Of a stretch of 16,659 nucleotides of DNA, positions 1,462 through 16,659 are shown one piece after another; position 1 is the stretch's first letter; every line of letters starts with the position of its first letter. A model generated the notes under the pieces. The model was not told where the DNA came from, ran no database searches, and was given only the letters and a program-made list of their open reading frames with translations. A program made the position numbers and the translations under genes. Source of the DNA: a virus (taxonomy: Duplodnaviria; Heunggongvirae; Uroviricota; Caudoviricetes); IMG/VR virus record IMGVR_UViG_2548876696_000013; one strand, given 5' to 3'.

Positions 1462-1583
1462 ATATGTCCTTTTATCATTACACCAGGTCAAGTCATTGAT
1501 TTAATTAAACAATTATCATTGAAAAAGTGCCAAAAATCGCAAATTGACTACACCATTAACTACACCGTTCGGTGCACTGTATG

Positions 1584-1609
1584 AAACAACGTGGAACAAA
1601 TAGACACAA
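1584..1609 (+). repeat. Three 10-bp-phased NNACAA hexamers (AAACAA-cgtg-GAACAA-atag-ACACAA); candidate recombination-directionality-factor or regulator binding array near the island terminus
   Basis: Hexamers at 1584, 1594 and 1604 with exact 10-bp spacing. The 14-mer ACAACGTGGAACAA at 1586-1599 is identical to the one at 9161-9174. Confidence 0.5.
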
Positions 1610-2603: not shown

Positions 2604-4265
2604 TTACACCCCGCTAAATTCTTCCAGTTTCTGGCGGTGGCTGTCGCTTATATCAAAAGCAAAATCCTCATGCTCTGCCTGGAATGTACCAAACGCCATC
2701 AGCGCCGCTACGCTCGGGTCTATCTTGTTCGGTGATTTTTTCTTGTTCGGCTTGATATTGGCGTTCGCGTCACTCTGCATCACGACGTTACTCATCGACC
2801 AGGACAACACCGGATCGCCACGATGCACAATCACCCTGCGGTTAACAAAAACTTCGAACGATTTCGCCGCCGGACTGAATCTGAGGTAGGTTTGCGGGAA
2901 CGGCTCCACCTCAAAACCAGCCCCCTGTAATTGCGTCCTGAGATGCGTGGCGTTCCACGTATCAAAGCCCACCAGCCTGATATTAAATTTCTCCGCATCC
3001 TGCATGATGTCATCTCTGATCCGGTCGTAATCAATGCAGTCACCTGGCGTTGTGCGTATCCAGCCCGCTTTAGCCCACTGGCGATAGACAGCGCGGTTTT
3101 TATTGGCGGGGTTCTGTAGCTGGAACTCCGGCAGATAATGACGGGAAACCAGCATGATATTTTTACCGACCGGAAAGGCATAGCACACGCTGGAAATATC
3201 GCTGGTTGATGATAAGTCCAGCCCCGCGTAACACTCCTGCCCGTGTAAATCTTCCTCCGTGAACGTTCCGGCACACTCAGCCCATGCGCCGTTACCCATC
3301 CACGGGGTAGCCCCCTGGCACCAGATATTAAATCGCTTTGTCATCATCTCCACCCATTGCGACGGAATACCCCGCGCTTTCTGGATGGTTGAGGCCAGTT
3401 TTTCACGATCCACGGAAACATCGATGTTAGGGTTAGCCTTTATCCACATCGCCGGATCATCAACCTCGTTTTCGTCGTCCAGCTCGTAAATCAGCACAAA
3501 AATTGAATCGTTGACCTCTTCGCCGTCCAGGATCTGGCAGCAATAATCATAGTGCTGTTTACAGGTTGAAACGACGTTACTGCCCGATGTGGTAATGGCA
3601 AATAACAGCCCTTCGGGACGTGCGCCCATCCCCAGCTCAAGCGCGGAATAAACGCCGTTATCGGGGTGTAGGTGGTATTCGTCCACGATGGAAAGGCTGG
3701 GGTTTGTTCCCTCGATGGTTGCCGCTTTTGCTGCCAGCGGCTTTAACAGGCTGTTGCTTTTCGGGTGCATCACCTTGTGGGCCTGAATATTCACCCGCCT
3801 GCGTAACGGTCGGGATAAAAGGCACATCTGACGCGCATCATCAAAAACGATCCGCGCCTGGTCACGGCTCACCGCTGCGGTGTAAATATCCTGCTGCCCG
3901 TTCTCCATAATCAGAAACCAGTTAGCCAGAATCGCGGCGGTCGTGGATTTCGCATTTTTGCGCGGCACTTCGATAAAGGCGCTCGTGTATTTGCGCCGTC
4001 CGGTGGCCTTAACCTTAAAGCCGAGGATGCACGCAAAGGCGAACTGCTGCCACGGCTCCAGCTCAATGGGTCTGCCACGCATCGGCCCTTTTACGTGCGG
4101 GCACACCCTGGAAAAGGCAATAAACCGCTCCACAACCTCACGATCGAACGTGTAAAGGGGGCTTTCAAGGTCCGAAAAGTACCGTTTAACGGCCTGTTTC
4201 AGCCGTTTACAGGCCGGAATTTTGCCCGTTTTTACGTCTTCTGCGTACTTATTCCAGGCGGTCAA
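2604..4265 (-). CDS. terL: Terminase large subunit (553 aa)
   Basis: N-terminal ATPase with Walker A-like VPRKNAKST and a C-terminal nuclease region; its start overlaps the 3' end of the TerS gene. Confidence 0.9.
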   Translation of the reverse strand: MTAWNKYAEDVKTGKIPACKRLKQAVKRYFSDLESPLYTFDREVVERFIAFSRVCPHVKGPMRGRPIELEPWQQFAFACILGFKVKATGRRKYTSAFIEVPRKNAKSTTAAILANWFLIMENGQQDIYTAAVSRDQARIVFDDARQMCLLSRPLRRRVNIQAHKVMHPKSNSLLKPLAAKAATIEGTNPSLSIVDEYHLHPDNGVYSALELGMGARPEGLLFAITTSGSNVVSTCKQHYDYCCQILDGEEVNDSIFVLIYELDDENEVDDPAMWIKANPNIDVSVDREKLASTIQKARGIPSQWVEMMTKRFNIWCQGATPWMGNGAWAECAGTFTEEDLHGQECYAGLDLSSTSDISSVCYAFPVGKNIMLVSRHYLPEFQLQNPANKNRAVYRQWAKAGWIRTTPGDCIDYDRIRDDIMQDAEKFNIRLVGFDTWNATHLRTQLQGAGFEVEPFPQTYLRFSPAAKSFEVFVNRRVIVHRGDPVLSWSMSNVVMQSDANANIKPNKKKSPNKIDPSVAALMAFGTFQAEHEDFAFDISDSHRQKLEEFSGV

Positions 4266-4893: not shown

Positions 4894-5334
4894 TCATTCA
4901 TCGGCGTCATACATCCAGTTATTGCGGTTAGCGGCCCGTTCTTCCTCTTCACGAAATCCACCTGCGGCACGCTTGCTTTTTGTTGCCGGATCAAGCCATT
5001 TCGTTTTCTGGTTATGACACGCCTGGCACAATGGCTGATGGTTCCATTCGGGCCAGAAGAGAACATCATCACCGCCATTAATCGGGATAATGTGATCCAC
5101 CACCACGGCGGGCGTATATATCCCCTTCTCAAGGCATCGCACGCATAACGGGTTTTTACTCAGATACATGGCGCGGTATTTGTCCCACTGTCTGGAATAT
5201 CCACGCGCGCGGCGGTGTCCTCGTCTGGCATCCTCTGCACGCCATGCCGCCCGCCTGTGCTCCTCACACTTGCCGGATTTAACGCGCCTGTTACAGCCTG
5301 GTTCTGTGCATCGTCTTAATGGTTGCCACGGCAT
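4894..5334 (-). CDS. HNH endonuclease, packaging-associated (146 aa)
   Basis: Cys-rich zinc-finger-like segments (CTEPGCNRRVKSGKCEEH, CVRCLEKG, CQACHNQK) and an HNH-like core (VVDHIIPI...WNHQPLC). Position directly upstream of the terminase genes. Confidence 0.85.
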   Translation of the reverse strand: MPWQPLRRCTEPGCNRRVKSGKCEEHRRAAWRAEDARRGHRRARGYSRQWDKYRAMYLSKNPLCVRCLEKGIYTPAVVVDHIIPINGGDDVLFWPEWNHQPLCQACHNQKTKWLDPATKSKRAAGGFREEEERAANRNNWMYDADE

Positions 5335-5630
5335 CAGTACACCCCCACATCACGGTAAGCCGTCCAGAGTGCGCCAATCGTCATGGGTACGCGTGTTTTT
5401 GCGTTATCCGCGACAATCTGGCGATTCTCATACAGGTGAGCGATAAACATCATGCAGCCAATCTTTATGGCTGGCGTGAACTCCAGCCCGTCATCAAAGC
5501 GCCTGCCTATATGTATCTGGCACGCCTCAAGCGATGCGGCAATGTATCCGCTGATTAACTGGTCTTCCTCGTCGCCATCGATACGGCAATGGAGTTTCAC
5601 TTCTTCCAGGGTGATAAGTTCTTCTGTCAT
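5334..5630 (-). CDS. Head-tail connector protein, gp6-like (98 aa)
   Basis: Size, position after the head-closure gene, and N-terminal LEEVKLHCRID motif typical of gp6-like connector proteins. Start overlaps the upstream stop by 4 nt. Confidence 0.7.
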   Translation of the reverse strand: MTEELITLEEVKLHCRIDGDEEDQLISGYIAASLEACQIHIGRRFDDGLEFTPAIKIGCMMFIAHLYENRQIVADNAKTRVPMTIGALWTAYRDVGVY

Positions 5631-5965
5631 TTTTCCGCGCCCTCACGACAAAGAATTTCAAGGCGTGTCCTGGCGGCATCCGGCAGCGGCTGCCCGATGA
5701 TATTCAGTACACGCCCCGCCAGCGGCCCCGTATTGACCTTTATCCGGCTGGTGGCGCTGATGTCCTTCCGGTACCGTATCCAGATCCTTACGGTACCAAT
5801 CGCCAGCTCTGCACCCGATGAAATGGCCTCCTTGCTGCTGACCATGTTCACGCTTGCCCAGAGTGTGTGACTGTCCTCCCACGTTTCGAGTATTTCGCCA
5901 GTTATATCCCTGGTCTGTTTCAGGGTCTGAATCGTTACCCTGTCACGCAGTCGCCCTATGTTCAT
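5627..5965 (-). CDS. Head closure / head-tail adaptor protein (112 aa from the internal start MNIGRLRDRVTIQ)
   Basis: The start chosen is the ATG overlapping the portal stop (ATGA at 5962-5965). The GRLRDRVTIQ motif is typical of this family. The longer ORF reaching 6007 would overlap the portal gene. Confidence 0.65.
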   Translation of the reverse strand: MNIGRLRDRVTIQTLKQTRDITGEILETWEDSHTLWASVNMVSSKEAISSGAELAIGTVRIWIRYRKDISATSRIKVNTGPLAGRVLNIIGQPLPDAARTRLEILCREGAEK

Positions 5966-7173
5966 TCCGGTTTTTCTCCCTCGCTGATTTTTACTTCCTG
6001 TTTCCATGCCTGGCTGAACTCATCACCACCATCACGCGGGGACAGCCCTTCACGTTCGCGGGCTTCGTTCGGGCACATAACGCCGGATTTGATACCGCGC
6101 TCATAGGTGGCAAAGCGTTCGCCAGGTGTGGCCCGTAACAGGTCCGCGCTGTCAAACTCCACCTGATACCGGATACCAGGTACAGGCGAGGCCACCAGCA
6201 GGGCGTTTTTTATCTGCTGCTCAAAGTTCGCCAGCCACGGGCGCATCGTCATGGTGAGAAATGCGCGGCTTGCCTCGCTGAAATTGCTGTAGGTGCTGTT
6301 GCTGTATTCCTGCAAAAAAATCGGCGAGACGTTGAACATTCGGGCGATGTCTTCAATGGTGAAGCGACGGGAGGCCAGCCATTCAGCATCCTGGTTACTC
6401 ATGCCCAGCTGCTGGTAACTCATGCCACCTTCAAGGATGGGCGTTTTTCCGGCGTTTCTGGCCCCTTTATAGCGTTCCAGTGCGGCTAATGCCTGTTTGC
6501 CCTTCACGCCGTCCAGCCATTCGCCTGACGTGATAACCCCTGCCGCCATCATGCCATCACGCATCACGCTCGCGCCGTGGCGTTGTTGGGCCAGCCCAAG
6601 CCCCAGCGATTCGCGGCAGATGGTTACAGGTGAGCGCCCCATAAAACCGTCATCCGTGGAGTAACGAAGGTGGAGAACCTCCCACGGTAAATAGTTGCGG
6701 GTGTTTCCGGTGTAGGCGTCAGTGATGCAGTAGCGCCAGTTATGCTCACCTGTCTGCTCCACGTTCACCGACTGCGGCGGGTAAGGATGTAAAGCCACCG
6801 GAAAACCATCACGCCCCCACTGAATCACCGCATAAGCATTACCGTTTAACAGGCAGTGGCGGATCATCATTCGCTTAAACTGGTAGGGGGTTTGCCATGC
6901 GTTCGGGCGCTCGTTGAGGATGTGATCGACCGGATGAGAATCAAGCCACTCGCGGGCCACCTTCCCCTTCTCATTGCGTACCAGGTACAGGTAACACGGC
7001 ATGGTAGCCACCGCCTCAGAGATGACCGTGACGGCGTTCATGACGGCGGGCAGTGATTCCGCTGTCCCCGATGATACGTACTCACCCGCCCCCGTGTTCG
7101 ATGTGCCAGCCAGCGCCATAAATTCATCAAGCGTCATGCTGCGCTGCTCTTTTTTTCTTCTGAAAGGCCACAT
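5962..7173 (-). CDS. Portal protein, HK97 family (403 aa)
   Basis: Size and position between the protease and adaptor genes; HK97-type portal sequence pattern from memory. Confidence 0.85.
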   Translation of the reverse strand: MWPFRRKKEQRSMTLDEFMALAGTSNTGAGEYVSSGTAESLPAVMNAVTVISEAVATMPCYLYLVRNEKGKVAREWLDSHPVDHILNERPNAWQTPYQFKRMMIRHCLLNGNAYAVIQWGRDGFPVALHPYPPQSVNVEQTGEHNWRYCITDAYTGNTRNYLPWEVLHLRYSTDDGFMGRSPVTICRESLGLGLAQQRHGASVMRDGMMAAGVITSGEWLDGVKGKQALAALERYKGARNAGKTPILEGGMSYQQLGMSNQDAEWLASRRFTIEDIARMFNVSPIFLQEYSNSTYSNFSEASRAFLTMTMRPWLANFEQQIKNALLVASPVPGIRYQVEFDSADLLRATPGERFATYERGIKSGVMCPNEAREREGLSPRDGGDEFSQAWKQEVKISEGEKPE

Positions 7174-7174
7174 A

Positions 7175-7747
7175 TCACACCCCCGCTAAATCCACCCACC
7201 AGCGGCGATTATCCGCACGCGGCATTTTTTCGGGGTGCTGCTCATACAGGGAACGGCGGGCCAGCTCCACGCCGGAATCAGGGTAAGCCGGAACGGATGT
7301 AACGGTAATTTCGTACAGTTCCGCCACCAGCACGGTGCGCACGCATGGTTCTGTTGTGGTATCCCATACATCCTTACGGGAACGAAAGCCAAAGCTCATG
7401 CCGGATATATCACCACGTTTAACCAGTTCGATAACGTCCCGCCCTGTGCTGGTATCCGGTGGGGTCAGTTCAAAGCGTAACCCTGTTTCGTCCTCTTCCA
7501 GTTTCAGCGTGCCGGAACGGGTACGCCCCAGTAACATGCTGTGGTCATGCTCATACAGGCCGCGAACGTCATTACCCGCCGCAAGCCATTCAGTAAACGC
7601 TCCCCGCTGGAATTTTTCGTAAAACTCACCCCATAACAGTTCTGAAAGCTTATCCCAGCGAACAACGTAGCCCGTCAGCGTACCGGCTCCGCTGGTGGTG
7701 ATTTCCGATGACCGGATTTCCATACTCTTCATAATTTTTTCACCCAT
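7175..7747 (-). CDS. Prohead maturation protease, HK97 family (start ambiguous among ATGs at 7747, 7732 and 7723)
   Basis: Conserved protease-family pattern (GYVVRWDK ... HD ... LLGRT ... GLRFE ... ISGMSFGF). The first ATG lies inside the upstream terminator tract, so the true start is probably one of the next two. Confidence 0.8.
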   Translation of the reverse strand: MGEKIMKSMEIRSSEITTSGAGTLTGYVVRWDKLSELLWGEFYEKFQRGAFTEWLAAGNDVRGLYEHDHSMLLGRTRSGTLKLEEDETGLRFELTPPDTSTGRDVIELVKRGDISGMSFGFRSRKDVWDTTTEPCVRTVLVAELYEITVTSVPAYPDSGVELARRSLYEQHPEKMPRADNRRWWVDLAGV

Positions 7748-8944: not shown

Positions 8945-8981
8945 AAAAAAAGTCCTGGGGTTAAGTAAGGAACTCCAGGAC
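8945..8981 (-). promoter_or_regulatory. Leader hairpin plus 7-nt A/U tract directly abutting the capsid start codon
   Basis: Stem GTCCTGG (8952-8958) pairs with CCAGGAC (8975-8981). On the mRNA the hairpin is followed by U7 and then the AUG at 8944; the only purine-rich SD-like element sits in the 3' arm of the stem. Confidence 0.5.
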
Positions 8982-9157: not shown

Positions 9158-9205
9158 TGAACAACGTGGAACAACCACGAACAAATAATTTACAAAAAAT
9201 AACAA
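9158..9205 (+). promoter_or_regulatory. Array of 10-bp-phased GAACAA hexamers upstream of the capsid operon; candidate activator-binding site
   Basis: GAACAA at 9159, 9169 and 9179 with spacers CGTG, CCAC and ATAA; two weaker ACAA copies follow at 9192 and 9202. Same motif family as 1584-1609 and 15338-15383. Confidence 0.5.
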
Positions 9206-9225
9206 AAAGCCGGATTGCTCCGGCT
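9192..9225 (-). terminator. Rho-independent terminator after the 74-aa gene
   Basis: Hairpin AGCCGGA-ttgc-TCCGGCT (9208-9225) followed on the minus strand by a U-rich tract; the gene's stop codon is at 9236. Confidence 0.7.
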
Positions 9226-10518: not shown

Positions 10519-10716
10519 TCCCCACTACTCCCCACTTTTGCTCCCCACTTTTTGAAATTACCCACCGTCTCCCCACCTCTTTTTTTTGTGATTCTAACGT
10601 TATGTTTTTCAATATGTTTTTTACTCCCCACTTTTTTGGGTGTATACAGGTGGGAAAGTGGGTAATTATGTTTCAATTTTGTTAAATTCCCCACTCTCCC
10701 CACTTTTACTCCCCAC
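10519..10716. repeat. Iteron-type replication origin: 8 direct TCCCCAC repeats, 1 variant, 2 inverted copies and an AT-rich spacer
   Basis: TCCCCAC at 10519, 10529, 10542, 10570, 10625, 10688, 10697 and 10710; variant ACCCACC at 10560; inverted copies at 10649-10664; AT-rich stretch at 10577-10624. Lies directly 3' of the replication ATPase gene. Confidence 0.7.
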
Positions 10717-10719
10717 TTT

Positions 10720-12129
10720 TTACAGCGGGCGCACGTCATCACCGTCAATAACGATTACGCCATCATTTTCCAGCTTGTACAGCCAGCGCCGGAAGTGCTT
10801 CATCTCATACCCCAGCTTTTTCATATCATCGCGGAGAAGGGCGATAGTGCACGCCTCCCCGTGTGCTGTTCGTGTTCTGATGCACTGCCATAGCGCGGCG
10901 TGATTCTCCGTCTTGTTCCCTGCCTCCTCGATGCGCTCCAGTTCAACGGGAGGGCGCGGCTTATCCACCACCACCAGCGACGTGATTAACTCCCCGTCAG
11001 CGTCGGTAAAAAGCTCCACCACCCGCAAATCATAGGCAGCCTCTTTGAGTTCCTCCGCGTCCTTCATTTTGGTGCATGAGATAACCAGCGCTTCGCTTCC
11101 TGCGTCCTCCCTGCGTATCCGGTATTCAGCATCCAGTGATGCACGAAATGCACTGGAACCGCGCGCGCCTTTCGTCTCATCCTTGCCGGAATGGTGAACC
11201 ACCAGCACCGTGGCCCCTGTGCGCCGTTTCAGTTCGTCACACCCACGGATAAACGCCCCCATGTCACGGGAATCATTTTCGTCATTGCCGCCAAAGCAAC
11301 GCGCCAGCGTGTCCAGAATAATCATGCGAACAGGTTTACCCGTTTCCCGCTCAACCTGGCTGGCAGCAATAACCAGTTCATCAACATCAAGCGGGACAGC
11401 CGGAAAGATGGGACGGTTTACAAGGTAAAGATTTTTCACCTGCTCCCCGTGCACAACCTCCCAGGCTTTTACACGACGCGGAACGCCAATACCGCCTTCA
11501 CCAACCACATAGAGAACAGCGCCATGCGCCACCCTGCGGCCTCCCCACTGGCGGCCCGTGGAAACGTGACACGCCCACGATCCGGCAAGGAATGATTTAT
11601 AGGAACCGCTCGCCCCGTATATGCTGCAAAGCGACGATGCCGGAATAATCCCCTTTACCACGTAATCAAGCTGTGTGTCGTATCCGGTAGATCCAACGCT
11701 CATCGGTAGCGTGGTTTTTCGCTGGGGGATTTTTTTCATGACCAGGCTTTCCCCGCGTTCCCATGCCTCCCTAAGCCGTGGAAGCTGGTCGTTCCATTCC
11801 TCCAGCAATTCGAAATTTTCAGAAAGTAGCCGCGCCTCCTGGACTCCGGCGATCGCCAGTTTCGTGGCGATGGTTAACAGCTGCGGCTCTTCAATATTTC
11901 CGGCGCGTATCACCGTCGCCCTGTATCGCCCATCATCAACAATCTGGAGGTTATCCAGTTCGCTTAACTGATAACGCCCCAGATAAACGGGAGGGACTGG
12001 ATCGCCTGCTTTTTTGGCCTGTGCAATGATGTAGTGCTCTGCAAATGAGTGCGCATTATTCCCCGCGAAAATAATTGCTTCGGTGTATTTGTCTTTCGGT
12101 AATAGTTTTACGTTCGGTGCAAGTTTCAT
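10720..12129 (-). CDS. Replication initiation ATPase / helicase-like protein, RecA-fold AAA type (469 aa)
   Basis: Walker A motif GASGSYKS, Walker B-like MIILDTLARCF, and a C-terminal putative winged-helix region. Position immediately upstream of the iterons. Confidence 0.8.
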   Translation of the reverse strand: MKLAPNVKLLPKDKYTEAIIFAGNNAHSFAEHYIIAQAKKAGDPVPPVYLGRYQLSELDNLQIVDDGRYRATVIRAGNIEEPQLLTIATKLAIAGVQEARLLSENFELLEEWNDQLPRLREAWERGESLVMKKIPQRKTTLPMSVGSTGYDTQLDYVVKGIIPASSLCSIYGASGSYKSFLAGSWACHVSTGRQWGGRRVAHGAVLYVVGEGGIGVPRRVKAWEVVHGEQVKNLYLVNRPIFPAVPLDVDELVIAASQVERETGKPVRMIILDTLARCFGGNDENDSRDMGAFIRGCDELKRRTGATVLVVHHSGKDETKGARGSSAFRASLDAEYRIRREDAGSEALVISCTKMKDAEELKEAAYDLRVVELFTDADGELITSLVVVDKPRPPVELERIEEAGNKTENHAALWQCIRTRTAHGEACTIALLRDDMKKLGYEMKHFRRWLYKLENDGVIVIDGDDVRPL

Positions 12130-12821: not shown

Positions 12822-13107
12822 GTGAAAGGCTCCCAGATGAAATTTAAGGAGTCTCGCTACTACGCTGCTAAACGGGGTGGCGAGACGTAACAGGGTTAGC
12901 AGACTGGTCATCTGGAAACCAGCGAGCGCAAAGGCTCCCCCGTTACGCCCCGCCATAATGCGGGTATGGGTAGGTTTACGGACACAAAAAAACCGCTTAT
13001 CGGATATGGGCGGCTGTCCGCCAGATGTATTCAGGCTGCTAAACCCGGTCGCCATGTGGGCGACGGGTGAAGCATACAGCCCCGTTATAATTTTTTGCAA
13101 GCGGCTT

Positions 13108-14866: not shown

Positions 14867-15055
14867 TTAGTGAACTGCCTTGCAGCTATCCTTCCAGGCC
14901 AAAACCTCAGATAAAGACCAGCCAACAGAACGCCCACCAAGTTTACGACGTGATGGGAATTGTCCGGCCTTTTCCAGGCGGTAGCGGCATGAGCGGCTAA
15001 GGCCTGTTAGCTTTTCGCATTCTTTTTCACGTATAAACCGATCAGTGCTTAACAC
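14867..15055 (-). CDS. alpA: AlpA-family phage regulatory protein / excisionase-like HTH (62 aa, GTG start)
   Basis: Motif KLTGLSRSCRYRLEKAGQFPSRRKLGGRSVGWSLSEVLAWK is typical of the AlpA/Vis family. SD AAGGGGG lies 7 nt upstream of the GTG. Confidence 0.85.
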   Translation of the reverse strand: MLSTDRFIREKECEKLTGLSRSCRYRLEKAGQFPSRRKLGGRSVGWSLSEVLAWKDSCKAVH

Positions 15056-15214
15056 TATTGCCCCCTTTCGTTTCTTAAAGAGTTATTTCGTGTTCTATTG
15101 CGTTGGGATGTGTCTGATTGTGTCAGGATGATTCAGAGTTGGCAAATGTTGGTGTCGCATGGTTTACAGAAAGAGGAATAATCAGGATAAAATCATTTAA
15201 ATTCATATCAATAC

Positions 15215-15246
15215 AAAGGCATAAAATCTTGTTTTATGCCTTTTTT
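15215..15246. terminator. Bidirectional hairpin terminator between int and alpA (AAAGGCATAAAA-tcttg-TTTTATGCCTTT then T6)
   Basis: 12-bp stem seen in sequence. T-tract on the plus strand and an A/U-rich flank on the minus strand. Confidence 0.6.
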
Positions 15247-15337
15247 CGCACGCTTTAACGCGTAATTCACTAATGTATAAAAAACCAGCTAAGCATTAAA
15301 AATCAGTAACTTATAAATCTGTATTCTTTTTGGCCTC

Positions 15338-15383
15338 TTGTTCGTGATTGTGTCACGTTGTTGCACATTGTTTCACGTTGTAT
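15338..15383 (-). promoter_or_regulatory. Five exactly 10-bp-phased NNACAA hexamers (minus-strand orientation) with CGTG/TGTG spacers
   Basis: Plus-strand TTGTTC, TTGTGT, TTGTTG, TTGTTT and TTGTAT at 15338, 15348, 15358, 15368 and 15378. Located 47-92 bp downstream of the int stop codon. Confidence 0.55.
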
Positions 15384-15429
15384 CTGTGCACTTATCCAGT
15401 ATGCGCATACTGAAAAAACACGAAAAAAA

Positions 15430-16659
15430 TTATTTTATTCTGGTTACTGGTAGCGTGGTTACGTTTTCATGTGTTCCCGCCAGTATCTCCAACCGCTCCA
15501 CCCACATATCAAGCGCATTGCGTTTCGCATCAATATAGCGGGAATGGTTGTACACGCGTTGCATTCCTGGCATCTGGTGGCCTGTAAGCTGCTCCACGAC
15601 GTGAGGATCAACGCCTAAATCGTTCAGCATGGTTGTAAAGGTGCGCCGGATGTCATGCAGTGACCAGTGAGGGTGTTTAAGCCTCCTGTGCACCAATCTG
15701 CCGTACTGCGATACGCTGGTTTCCTGTTTCACTTCCCCCAGCAATAAGCCCGTGTGCCTGTTCTGCTCCACCAGCTGCGTGACGAACGGCAGTATCGCTT
15801 CCGGTATGGGCCGGAATATGGCTACCTTCGTTTTGCTGTGCTCCTTCGGAACGGTCCAGAGCATTTCGGTAAAATCCCACTCGCCGATCTCCGATAACCT
15901 CAGTTCTACTGTCCGGCATCCGAAAACAATCAGGAGGCGGATTAGTGCGACGTAGTAAGGGGAAAATATTTTTTTGTCCAGTGCCTGCAATAATTCGCCA
16001 AGTTCTTTGTTACTTAAGACACGCTCACTTATATCCGGTTTTTTCCCAACGTCCGCCACACTCATATCATCAAGAACGTTGCTGATTGCATAGCGCCGCT
16101 TCCTGCAGAACTTAAGCGCCTGCTTGCATGTCTGTAGCAGGAACCCGGCGGAAACAGGGGCTTTCTTTGCCACCCGATCAAAACAGGCCAGCCAGTGCCG
16201 TAGCTCGCATTTATCCAGCGGCATAGGGCCAATGTGCTGTATTACGTGATTATTTAGCCGCTTTTTCAGTGGGTCATAATCCACACGGTTTTCCTTTGCG
16301 TACGACTCAAGCCAGTAGGTGAGCGCATCGCCAACCGTTACCGGCTTTAACGCTTCCTGTACGGTGTAATTCATTTCATGACGTGGATTTTTCCCCTCTG
16401 CCAGCCATGCGCGACACTGGGCGGCTTTTTCCCTGGCTGATTTCAGGCTCAGATCAGGATAATTTCCCAGCTTAATGCGTTCCGGTGGTGCCCCCCTTCC
16501 CGTTCCGGCCCTGTAAGTGAAATACCAGGTTAAAAGGCCACTGGTTGAATGCCTGACGCTCAGGTTTCCACCGTCATTAAGAAAGGCTGTTTTTTGGGCG
16601 GGTGTGCCGTTGATTTTCCTCAGCTGTGTATCGCTCAGTTTGTTAAGTGCTCTGCTCAT
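15430..16659 (-). CDS. int: Tyrosine site-specific integrase, P4-like (409 aa; start codon is the last three bases of the window)
   Basis: N-terminal arm-binding-like region (LSDTQLRKI ... DGGNLSVRHSTSGLLTWYFTYR) and a C-terminal catalytic region with conserved R, HxxR and Y (HDIRRTF ... YNHSRYID). The upstream RBS is outside the window, so the true start could lie further out. Confidence 0.9.
   Translation of the reverse strand: MSRALNKLSDTQLRKINGTPAQKTAFLNDGGNLSVRHSTSGLLTWYFTYRAGTGRGAPPERIKLGNYPDLSLKSAREKAAQCRAWLAEGKNPRHEMNYTVQEALKPVTVGDALTYWLESYAKENRVDYDPLKKRLNNHVIQHIGPMPLDKCELRHWLACFDRVAKKAPVSAGFLLQTCKQALKFCRKRRYAISNVLDDMSVADVGKKPDISERVLSNKELGELLQALDKKIFSPYYVALIRLLIVFGCRTVELRLSEIGEWDFTEMLWTVPKEHSKTKVAIFRPIPEAILPFVTQLVEQNRHTGLLLGEVKQETSVSQYGRLVHRRLKHPHWSLHDIRRTFTTMLNDLGVDPHVVEQLTGHQMPGMQRVYNHSRYIDAKRNALDMWVERLEILAGTHENVTTLPVTRIK

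Follow-up and report, generated by a model that had tools for sequence, protein, structure and literature searches.

Recombination directionality factors (RDFs) bind DNA head to tail, one helical turn apart, and some of them, such as Apl of phage 186 and Cox of phage P2, have a second set of sites at promoters (PMC7498355). In brief, Apl binds five repeats at the attachment site (att) and seven at pR-pL, 10-11 bp apart, and both Apl and Cox are small proteins that bind cooperatively and bend the DNA (PMC7498355). Here we describe an array of five direct ACAA repeats at exact 10-bp spacing, located between the integrase gene int and the gene alpA of what is, judged from its genes, a phage-inducible chromosomal island (PICI). 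The island is found in IMG/VR virus record IMGVR_UViG_2548876696_000013 (Caudoviricetes), a stretch of 16,659 nucleotides that was analysed whole and is called the window below. We refer to the repeats as the distal array, to separate them from a weaker run of units at the putative alpA promoter. The distal array is a real, conserved cis element and is best read as a new case of the known dual-purpose RDF operators. We predict that it binds AlpA and acts in the autoregulation of alpA, and we give this statement as a whole a probability of about one half.

Some of the described RDFs are winged-helix proteins. In phage lambda, Xis monomers of this kind sit head to tail on successive turns at X1, X1.5 and X2 and bend the DNA (cited in PMC7498355). 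TorI of KplE1, an AlpA-type winged-helix RDF like the AlpA of the window, has 8-bp sites (I1-I5) with a GTTCG core in attL. Three of these are contiguous in 10-bp phasing, CAGTTCGT-ca-TGGTTCGC-tt-CAGATCGT, and abut the -35 of PintS (PMC2951348). Vis of P4 acts as an excisionase and also regulates Pint (PMC7286903). Gram-negative PICIs have AlpA as their master switch. In EcCICFT073, it activates a PalpA-lacZ fusion, has no effect on a Pint fusion, and triggers int-dependent excision and replication without raising Pint (PMC6092414). The alpA gene is induced by helper phages and not by the SOS response, and its inducer was described as unidentified (PMC6092414). Excision of EcCIMP1 requires alpA (PMC11773190). 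We did not find a definition of the DNA target of AlpA in a PICI in the literature searched.

The distal array and the two genes around it are located as follows.

15338 to 15383, minus strand: distal array, five N2-ACAA-N4 units at exact 10-bp spacing
15430 to 16659, minus strand: int, P4-type tyrosine integrase with an arm-binding N-terminal domain, stop codon at 15430-15432
14867 to 15055, minus strand: alpA, 62 amino acids, excisionase-type winged helix (Pfam PF05930, E = 5e-18), start at 15055

On the plus strand, TTGT (ACAA on the gene strand) is found at 15338, 15348, 15358, 15368 and 15378, and 15338-15383 reads TTGTTC gtga TTGTGT cacg TTGTTG caca TTGTTT cacg TTGTAT. On the minus strand, in the direction from int to alpA, this is ATACAA-cgtg-AAACAA-tgtg-CAACAA-cgtg-ACACAA-tcac-GAACAA. 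The spacers vary among the units, whereas the ACAA cores are kept. A weak sixth unit, ccAAAAagaa (about 15324-15333), scores above the threshold of a position weight matrix (PWM) for the array, and Tandem Repeats Finder reports a period of 10 with a score of 47 over 15348-15381. The array is intergenic. It begins 47 nt past the int stop and is followed in gene direction, after about 95 nt, by a hairpin with a 12-bp stem at 15215-15243. A preliminary description of this DNA, made from its letters alone, had reported five hexamers at exact 10-bp spacing between int and a hairpin, upstream of alpA in gene direction, and both the spacing and the placement are confirmed. The CGTG/TGTG spacers that it gave are correct for three of the four; the fourth is TCAC.

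The longest period-10 run of any 4-mer in the window is five, at the distal array. Among 1000 windows simulated with a first-order Markov model, the longest run was 2 in 759, 3 in 240, 4 in one and 5 in none.

We examined 19 loci, comprising the window, 12 further E. coli and Shigella loci and six IMG/VR contigs. Four to six exact in-phase ACAA cores are present at the same position in 17 of these, and the other two have one single-base core variant each. The EcCICFT073-type islands carry six units that abut the int stop. Between the EDL933-like and the CFT073-like groups neither flank of the array can be aligned, whereas the cores and their phasing are kept. Within the closer group, 2 of 20 core columns and 10 of 30 spacer columns are variable, a contrast that is only suggestive (Fisher p = 0.09). 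The preliminary description had named missing conservation in homologous islands as a reason to drop a function; the array is kept as five or six units at the same place in the related loci examined.

Period-10, microsatellite-like arrays are common in large sequence collections, and this is what could be said for a functionless, neutral tandem duplication. However, the spacers differ between units that share their cores, the array persists where its flanks fail to align, and the motif recurs at three other regulatory or recombination sites. The conservation pattern, the simulations and this recurrence rule out a neutral or chance repeat, and we regard such an origin as barely credible.

A blastn search with the array against 50,697 phage records returned no meaningful match. 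Scanning IMG/VR for ACAA-N6 x5 gave at least 120 loci, mostly exact microsatellites of giant viruses, together with six PICI contigs that have AlpA; the pattern is too unspecific and therefore unsuitable for a census. A contig search with an AlpA alignment gave 47 loci, three of them enterobacterial, and was uninformative for covariation. The Erwinia and Buttiauxella loci among these have an int-DUF6387-alpA layout. Islands with this layout (L013 2384-2486; L017 and L018, about 3440-3470) have two CGAAC units within a GC-rich hairpin that has a T-run after it, just ahead of the alpA start codon.

PWM and exact-chain scans found arrays of at least three units at four places only: the P' arm, the P arm, upstream of the capsid operon (the late array) and between int and alpA. 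Their units follow the consensus RAACAA, and CGTG often comes next. The arrays outside the int-alpA region and the att features beside them are listed here.

1584 to 1609, plus strand: P' arm array, AAACAA, GAACAA and ACACAA at 10 bp
4916 to 4949 of locus L001: P arm array, just upstream of the int ATG
9159 to 9184, plus strand: late array, GAACAA x3 (TTGTTC in gene direction), between a terminator at 9208-9225 and the capsid operon
1460 to 1469: att core AAATATGTCC, left junction, directly after the phoQ stop, from comparison with the empty K-12 site
1543 to 1566, plus strand: doubled 12-mer, ATTAACTACACC x2, about 75 nt from the core

The right copy of the att core is located about 172 nt past the window end, and a second doubled 12-mer, which the window just misses, precedes the int ATG by 23 nt. 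In EcCICFT073 the arrays are those of the P arm, the P' arm and the int-alpA region. Within the window, other runs of at least three phased ACAA occur only at 1586/1596/1606 and 9161/9171/9181, both with ACAA on the plus strand. This agrees with the preliminary description, which counted three arrays and noted that the distal one has the opposite orientation.

The late array is located 17-19 nt upstream of a -35-like hexamer. In other capsid-forming PICIs (cf-PICIs) the three units are kept in front of an unrelated downstream leader, 17 nt upstream of a TTTACA-16-TATGTT promoter, where an upstream activator site would normally be placed. The packaging operon begins with a hairpin, GTCCTGG...CCAGGAC (-14.1 kcal/mol, 8952-8981, minus strand), after which come seven T and, without a gap, the capsid ATG. 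This hairpin could act as a terminator or attenuator, or might mask the ribosome-binding site.

We compared the locus with what is expected of RDF arrays: an element-encoded small winged-helix RDF; at least three direct head-to-tail repeats 10-11 bp apart; the same motif in the att arms, within about 250 bp of the core and beside the arm-type sites of the integrase; and a second repeat set at a promoter region outside att. AlpA is a small winged-helix protein encoded on the island. The distal array has five such repeats, or six in CFT073-type islands. A doubled 12-mer adjoins each arm array, which is a phased 10-bp triple or quadruple, and the int-alpA array, the units at the alpA promoter and the late array are located outside att. 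Only the arm copies lie within about 250 bp of a core; for the distal array the distance is ~1.3 kb to the right core and 13.9 kb to the left one. We consider the att-arm copies plausible excision sites. The preliminary description had also offered the distal copy as a site for excision or for modulating int. With the att core ~1.3 kb away, a direct role in excision is unlikely. A role in int expression is not borne out either: the array is downstream of int, Pint is ~1.3 kb off in the P arm, and AlpA had no effect on the Pint fusion of EcCICFT073.

The P4 Int (PMC7286903) and IntS of KplE1 (PMC2951348) repress transcription via their arm sites. As the Int of the window has an arm-binding domain and ACAA arrays are found in both att arms, these arrays might be arm-type sites bound by the Int N-terminal domain, with the int-alpA copy used for autoregulation or for repression of alpA. 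The doubled 12-mers argue for another assignment. They match the annotated arm repeats of P4 in number (2 + 2 for a tetramer) and position, P4 attP having doubled arm repeats on both arms in the same layout as the window island. Among the islands the 12-mer differs (ATTAAC.. vs AGTGAC..) alongside the N-terminal domain of Int (79-100% identity), whereas the ACAA units are constant in the same islands, in which AlpA is 92-100% identical. Because differences in the N-terminal domain of Int are matched by changes in the 12-mers but not in the ACAA arrays, we assign the 12-mers to Int, as its likely arm-type sites, and the arrays to another protein. Two unrelated motifs for one arm-binding domain are unlikely, and the int-alpA and late copies are far from any att core. 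Int is thus an improbable ligand of the distal array.

AlpA fits better, and is probably the ligand. Its AlphaFold2 model, made from the single sequence (pLDDT 87), has the GIsul2 excisionase as the best PDB match (TM 0.79) and also matches RdfS, Pukovnik Xis, TorI and the N-terminal domains of MerR proteins. AlpA is 47% identical to P4 Vis. By primer mapping, the PalpA insert of the EcCICFT073 fusion is L067 7128-7583 and holds the six-unit array (7188-7241), the hairpin and the promoter-proximal units. The fragment activated by AlpA spans the array together with the whole intergenic region. The Pint insert maps to about 5623-6469 and includes the P-arm array. Excision driven by AlpA without a rise of Pint is consistent with a direct RDF role. 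The preliminary description had proposed an AlpA/Vis-type site that autoregulates alpA. This holds as far as the best candidate ligand and the position in the alpA control region are concerned, based on the motif in the attP arms, the AlpA fold, the identity to Vis, the TorI-like phasing and the presence of the array in the AlpA-activated fragment; binding itself is predicted.

The region between the distal array and alpA contains four further features.

15301 to 15313, plus strand: site AATCAGTAACTTA similar to the consensus of integration host factor (IHF) (WATCAANNNNTTR, one mismatch), 25 nt from the array
15215 to 15243, minus strand: hairpin with a 12-bp stem, then UUUGUAUU; separates the array from the alpA promoter as an intrinsic terminator or insulator
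15117 to 15145, minus strand: putative PalpA, TTGCCA, 17-nt spacer, CACAAT, with TG before the -10
15088 to 15123, minus strand: proximal degenerate array, ACACAA, ACACAT, ACGCAA and ACACGA, overlapping the -10 and the early transcribed region

In variants of the hairpin the stem is kept via G-U pairs only in the int-to-alpA direction, which argues that it acts on RNA from upstream. Most simply, it would be an int terminator that insulates alpA. The layout of a -35, 17 nt and (C/A)ACAAT is present in all variants, and the -10 hexamer of the putative PalpA is itself an ACAA unit, the first of the proximal run. The proximal and distal arrays are in the same 10-bp register (220 bp), and variants of the proximal run differ by an exact 10-bp indel. 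From the last distal to the first proximal core the distance is 220, 221, 223 or 232 bp in variants with different intervening sequence; such spacing near whole helical turns may hint at a phase constraint. The IHF consensus is perfect at the same position in ETEC4077 and CFT073, and taken alone is near chance expectation.

Based on these observations, we suggest that the distal array would be a cooperative platform for AlpA, on which monomers line up head to tail, one to each helical turn, in a short, bent nucleoprotein filament like those of Xis, TorI, Apl and Cox. On the arrays of both attP arms AlpA would direct excision, and its binding to the late array would turn on packaging. Within the region through which alpA autoregulates, the int-alpA copy would serve as the upstream element of high affinity. 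After alpA transcription has been started by a helper phage, AlpA would fill the five or six strong distal sites. How much alpA is expressed would then be set by these sites jointly with the adjacent IHF-like bend and the four weaker in-phase promoter sites, the feedback being positive while AlpA is low and possibly damping once it is high. The promoter could be reached through an IHF-assisted bent complex with the proximal units or by terminator read-through, but action from ~196 bp upstream of the -35, across a terminator, is speculative.

The four phased RAACAA arrays, in both att arms, the alpA control region and at the capsid operon, are a candidate AlpA regulon. They offer one explanation of how AlpA may trigger excision without an increase of int and also activate island genes. 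The stretch of ~50 bp within the published alpA reporter fragment is a mutable target for AlpA feedback and for the entry of the helper signal.

Several findings weigh against AlpA acting at the distal array to autoregulate alpA. The sole conserved sigma-70-like promoter is ~196 bp downstream of the array with the int-to-alpA terminator in between, which is an odd geometry for an activator, and the array runs opposite to the late and P-arm arrays. The proximal units span -12 to about +28, which is more repression-like than activation-like. AlpA had no effect on Pint though the P-arm array is in that fusion; therefore, occupancy, if any, need not alter transcription. Two islands with another AlpA allele (L014 and L015) have no array directly after int; theirs adjoins the promoter. 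The ori iterons of the P4 alpha protein (TGTTCACC) resemble TTGTTC, and the contrast between core and spacer columns is counted here as well.

The position of the hairpin also allows a reading by antitermination. A promoter in or just downstream of the array would give a short transcript ending at 15215-15243, and RNA polymerase, modified by AlpA on the array, would read into alpA in the manner of the P. aeruginosa AlpA at PalpB-tB; the capsid operon would be controlled likewise. The AlpA of P. aeruginosa is a processive antiterminator that needs a DNA element (PMC7969949). It shares name and family with the island protein, is a positive regulator, and has the terminator tB between its element and the regulated genes (PMC7969949). 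In the window an intrinsic-terminator-like hairpin follows the array and is maintained in the int-to-alpA direction, and downstream of the late array a hairpin and seven T directly precede the capsid ATG. On the other hand, the P. aeruginosa element is a single site in a promoter spacer without att function, and not a five-unit phased array. We did not find a conserved -35/-10 pair between the distal array and the hairpin, a stretch that cannot be aligned between the island groups, and no conserved promoter surrounds the array such that it would lie between a -35 and a -10. A PDB sequence search with the AlpA of the window gave the GIsul2 excisionase only, with no support for closeness to the P. 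aeruginosa protein. Antitermination is unlikely, though less so than the other alternatives to autoregulation by AlpA treated here.

Other promoter candidates near the array were rejected. A TATAAG candidate (15309-15314) is not shared by CFT073-type islands, nor do EDL933-type islands retain a TGaCACAAT located inside the array. Conservation does extend to a plus-strand CTGAAA-15-TATTTT at the int stop, but a spacer of 15 nt is too short for a promoter. We also rejected CTGTGCACTTATCCAG at 15384-15399, which we take to resemble a LexA box (CTGT-N8-CCAG) like that of uvrB: it is found in EDL933-like islands only and is replaced in CFT073-like ones, and induction of alpA reportedly does not depend on SOS. 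Reading the repeats at the RNA level, as part of the int 3' untranslated region, was set aside as well, since the motif recurs in the att arms and has the periodicity of a DNA turn. An Rfam search of the int-alpA region gave nothing at the gathering threshold or at E <= 1, barring sub-threshold noise.

The predicted AlpA operator resembles those of Apl and Cox in having direct repeats once per helical turn, one set at att and another at a regulatory region, and the cooperative binding and bending of these small proteins is predicted for AlpA too. Apl and Cox are from a different sequence family, however. Their regulatory operators are located between face-to-face promoters and repress these, whereas the distal array is ~196 bp upstream of its promoter behind a terminator, and AlpA is reported as an activator.

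The TorI sites can be compared with unit 1 of the array, TTGTTCGT. They are in an att arm and repress int, whereas the distal array is outside att and downstream of int, and the conserved core is GTTCG for TorI and TTGT/ACAA in the window lineage. In PICIs located at cspD, whose AlpA is 50% identical, the region upstream of alpA has TGTTCGCT-aa-GGTTCGTA-ga-AGCTCGTT, 7 nt from a TTGGCA. Their units are four of GTTCG type at exact 10-bp spacing (L014 2489-2528 and the equivalent in L015), nearly the same as the TorI sites of KplE1.

X1 of lambda Xis also resembles a unit of the window array. The lambda set differs from that of the window in having three sites in one arm only, and Xis belongs to a Pfam family other than that of AlpA. 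To our knowledge, lambda Xis is not known to activate transcription of its own gene.

P4 vis is, like alpA, the first gene after a regulatory region. In contrast to int-alpA, int and vis of P4 are neither adjacent nor co-oriented, and the region upstream of vis holds the origin of replication (ori) and, presumably, Cox boxes as well. In P4 (L065, X51522) we found an unannotated phased triple, GGACAA-cctc-GGAAGA-cgca-GGACGA, at 3984-4009 between the int-side arm pair and the core, which judged by its layout may possibly be a set of Vis sites. About 150 bp upstream of vis P4 has three 10-bp tandem repeats (GCTTTAAGTG), which we take to be the Cox boxes of P2.

With this arrangement in mind, the distal array could be bound by a protein from outside the island, either a helper-phage inducer, for example a relaxed-specificity excisionase, or a host factor, that switches alpA on as P2 Cox does upstream of P4 PLL/vis. 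Induction by helpers with an inducer reported as unidentified (PMC6092414) and cross-talk between PICI and helper excisionases (PMC11773190) would agree with this, and X1 of lambda Xis (ACACAACATA) scores 8.7 on the array PWM, within the range of true units. However, X2 of lambda scores poorly, the blastn search gave no phage record with a similar array, and the motif is found in the attP arms of the island, where its own RDF is expected. Furthermore, lambda, phi80 and HK106 would all have to recognise the array, different as they are. We consider a ligand from outside the island unlikely. We give the same low probability to the fuller reading, in which the array is the cis element for switch-on by the helper phage: a helper protein, most simply its relaxed-specificity excisionase, would fill the sites beside the IHF bend and set off alpA transcription or terminator read-through, after which AlpA would occupy these sites in turn and feed back positively. 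If true, this would parallel in a PICI what P2 Cox does at the Cox boxes preceding P4 vis, and would identify the inducer of Gram-negative PICIs.

P4 also provides the model for reading the array as replication iterons, that is, as a second ori or crr-like element bound by Rep. Its alpha protein has iterons at 10-11-bp spacing both in crr and upstream of vis, and an N-terminal domain of ~125 amino acids, 45-46% identical, is common to the three Rep types found in the islands. The array is kept across the AAA_25, DUF927 and D5-primase types of Rep, which speaks against Rep iterons with the caveat of the shared domain, and arrays in att arms would be unexpected. Moreover, distinct tandem 13-mer pairs, CTCCCCACTTTT(G/A), are located directly downstream of rep (10528-10552 and 10696-10720). 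These pairs, which have no relation to the ACAA motif, are likely the ori iterons. The ori has been placed downstream of rep (PMC10111431), and a rep-ori fragment of EcCICFT073 alone supports replication (PMC6092414). A function of the distal array in replication is thus very improbable. The domain shared by the AAA_25 helicase (11752-12129, minus strand), the D5-type primase and the DUF927 protein has no Pfam match; its coordinates in other loci are L067 10242-10620 and L002 769-1146.

The gene phoQ occupies 1-1461 of the window and is followed by the island of ~15.4 kb, all genes of which are on the minus strand. In addition to int and alpA, the island encodes a DUF4222 protein, the AAA_25 replication helicase and an SSB, and has an HK97-type head module comprising capsid, protease, portal, connectors, HNH, TerS and TerL. 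By this architecture it is a cf-PICI at the phoQ/roxA site and a relative of EcCIEDL933 and EcCICFT073, the latter being located at the same chromosomal site. E. coli 05-3629 has a sequence identical to the window, and the island there is found between phoQ and roxA. The 681-bp int-alpA region is present in 733 of 5426 complete E. coli genomes (83-100% identity) and shares 85% identity with its EcCIEDL933 counterpart.

In the stretch from alpA to the replication genes, Rfam identifies a C4 antisense RNA (RF01695) at 12873-12960 on the minus strand (71.6 bits, gathering score 45), which is an immunity RNA of P1/P7/P4 type. About 1 kb of non-coding DNA separates the P' arm from the end of terL and holds two repeat families at 1898-2316. 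In brief, the first is a 37-mer in four copies, consisting of a CCTCAAATTGAGG hairpin plus GGAAATATCAAC, and the second consists of three copies of GCTTTAAGTTCA..GTTAC.GC. These repeats may be packaging sites (cos or TerS-binding).

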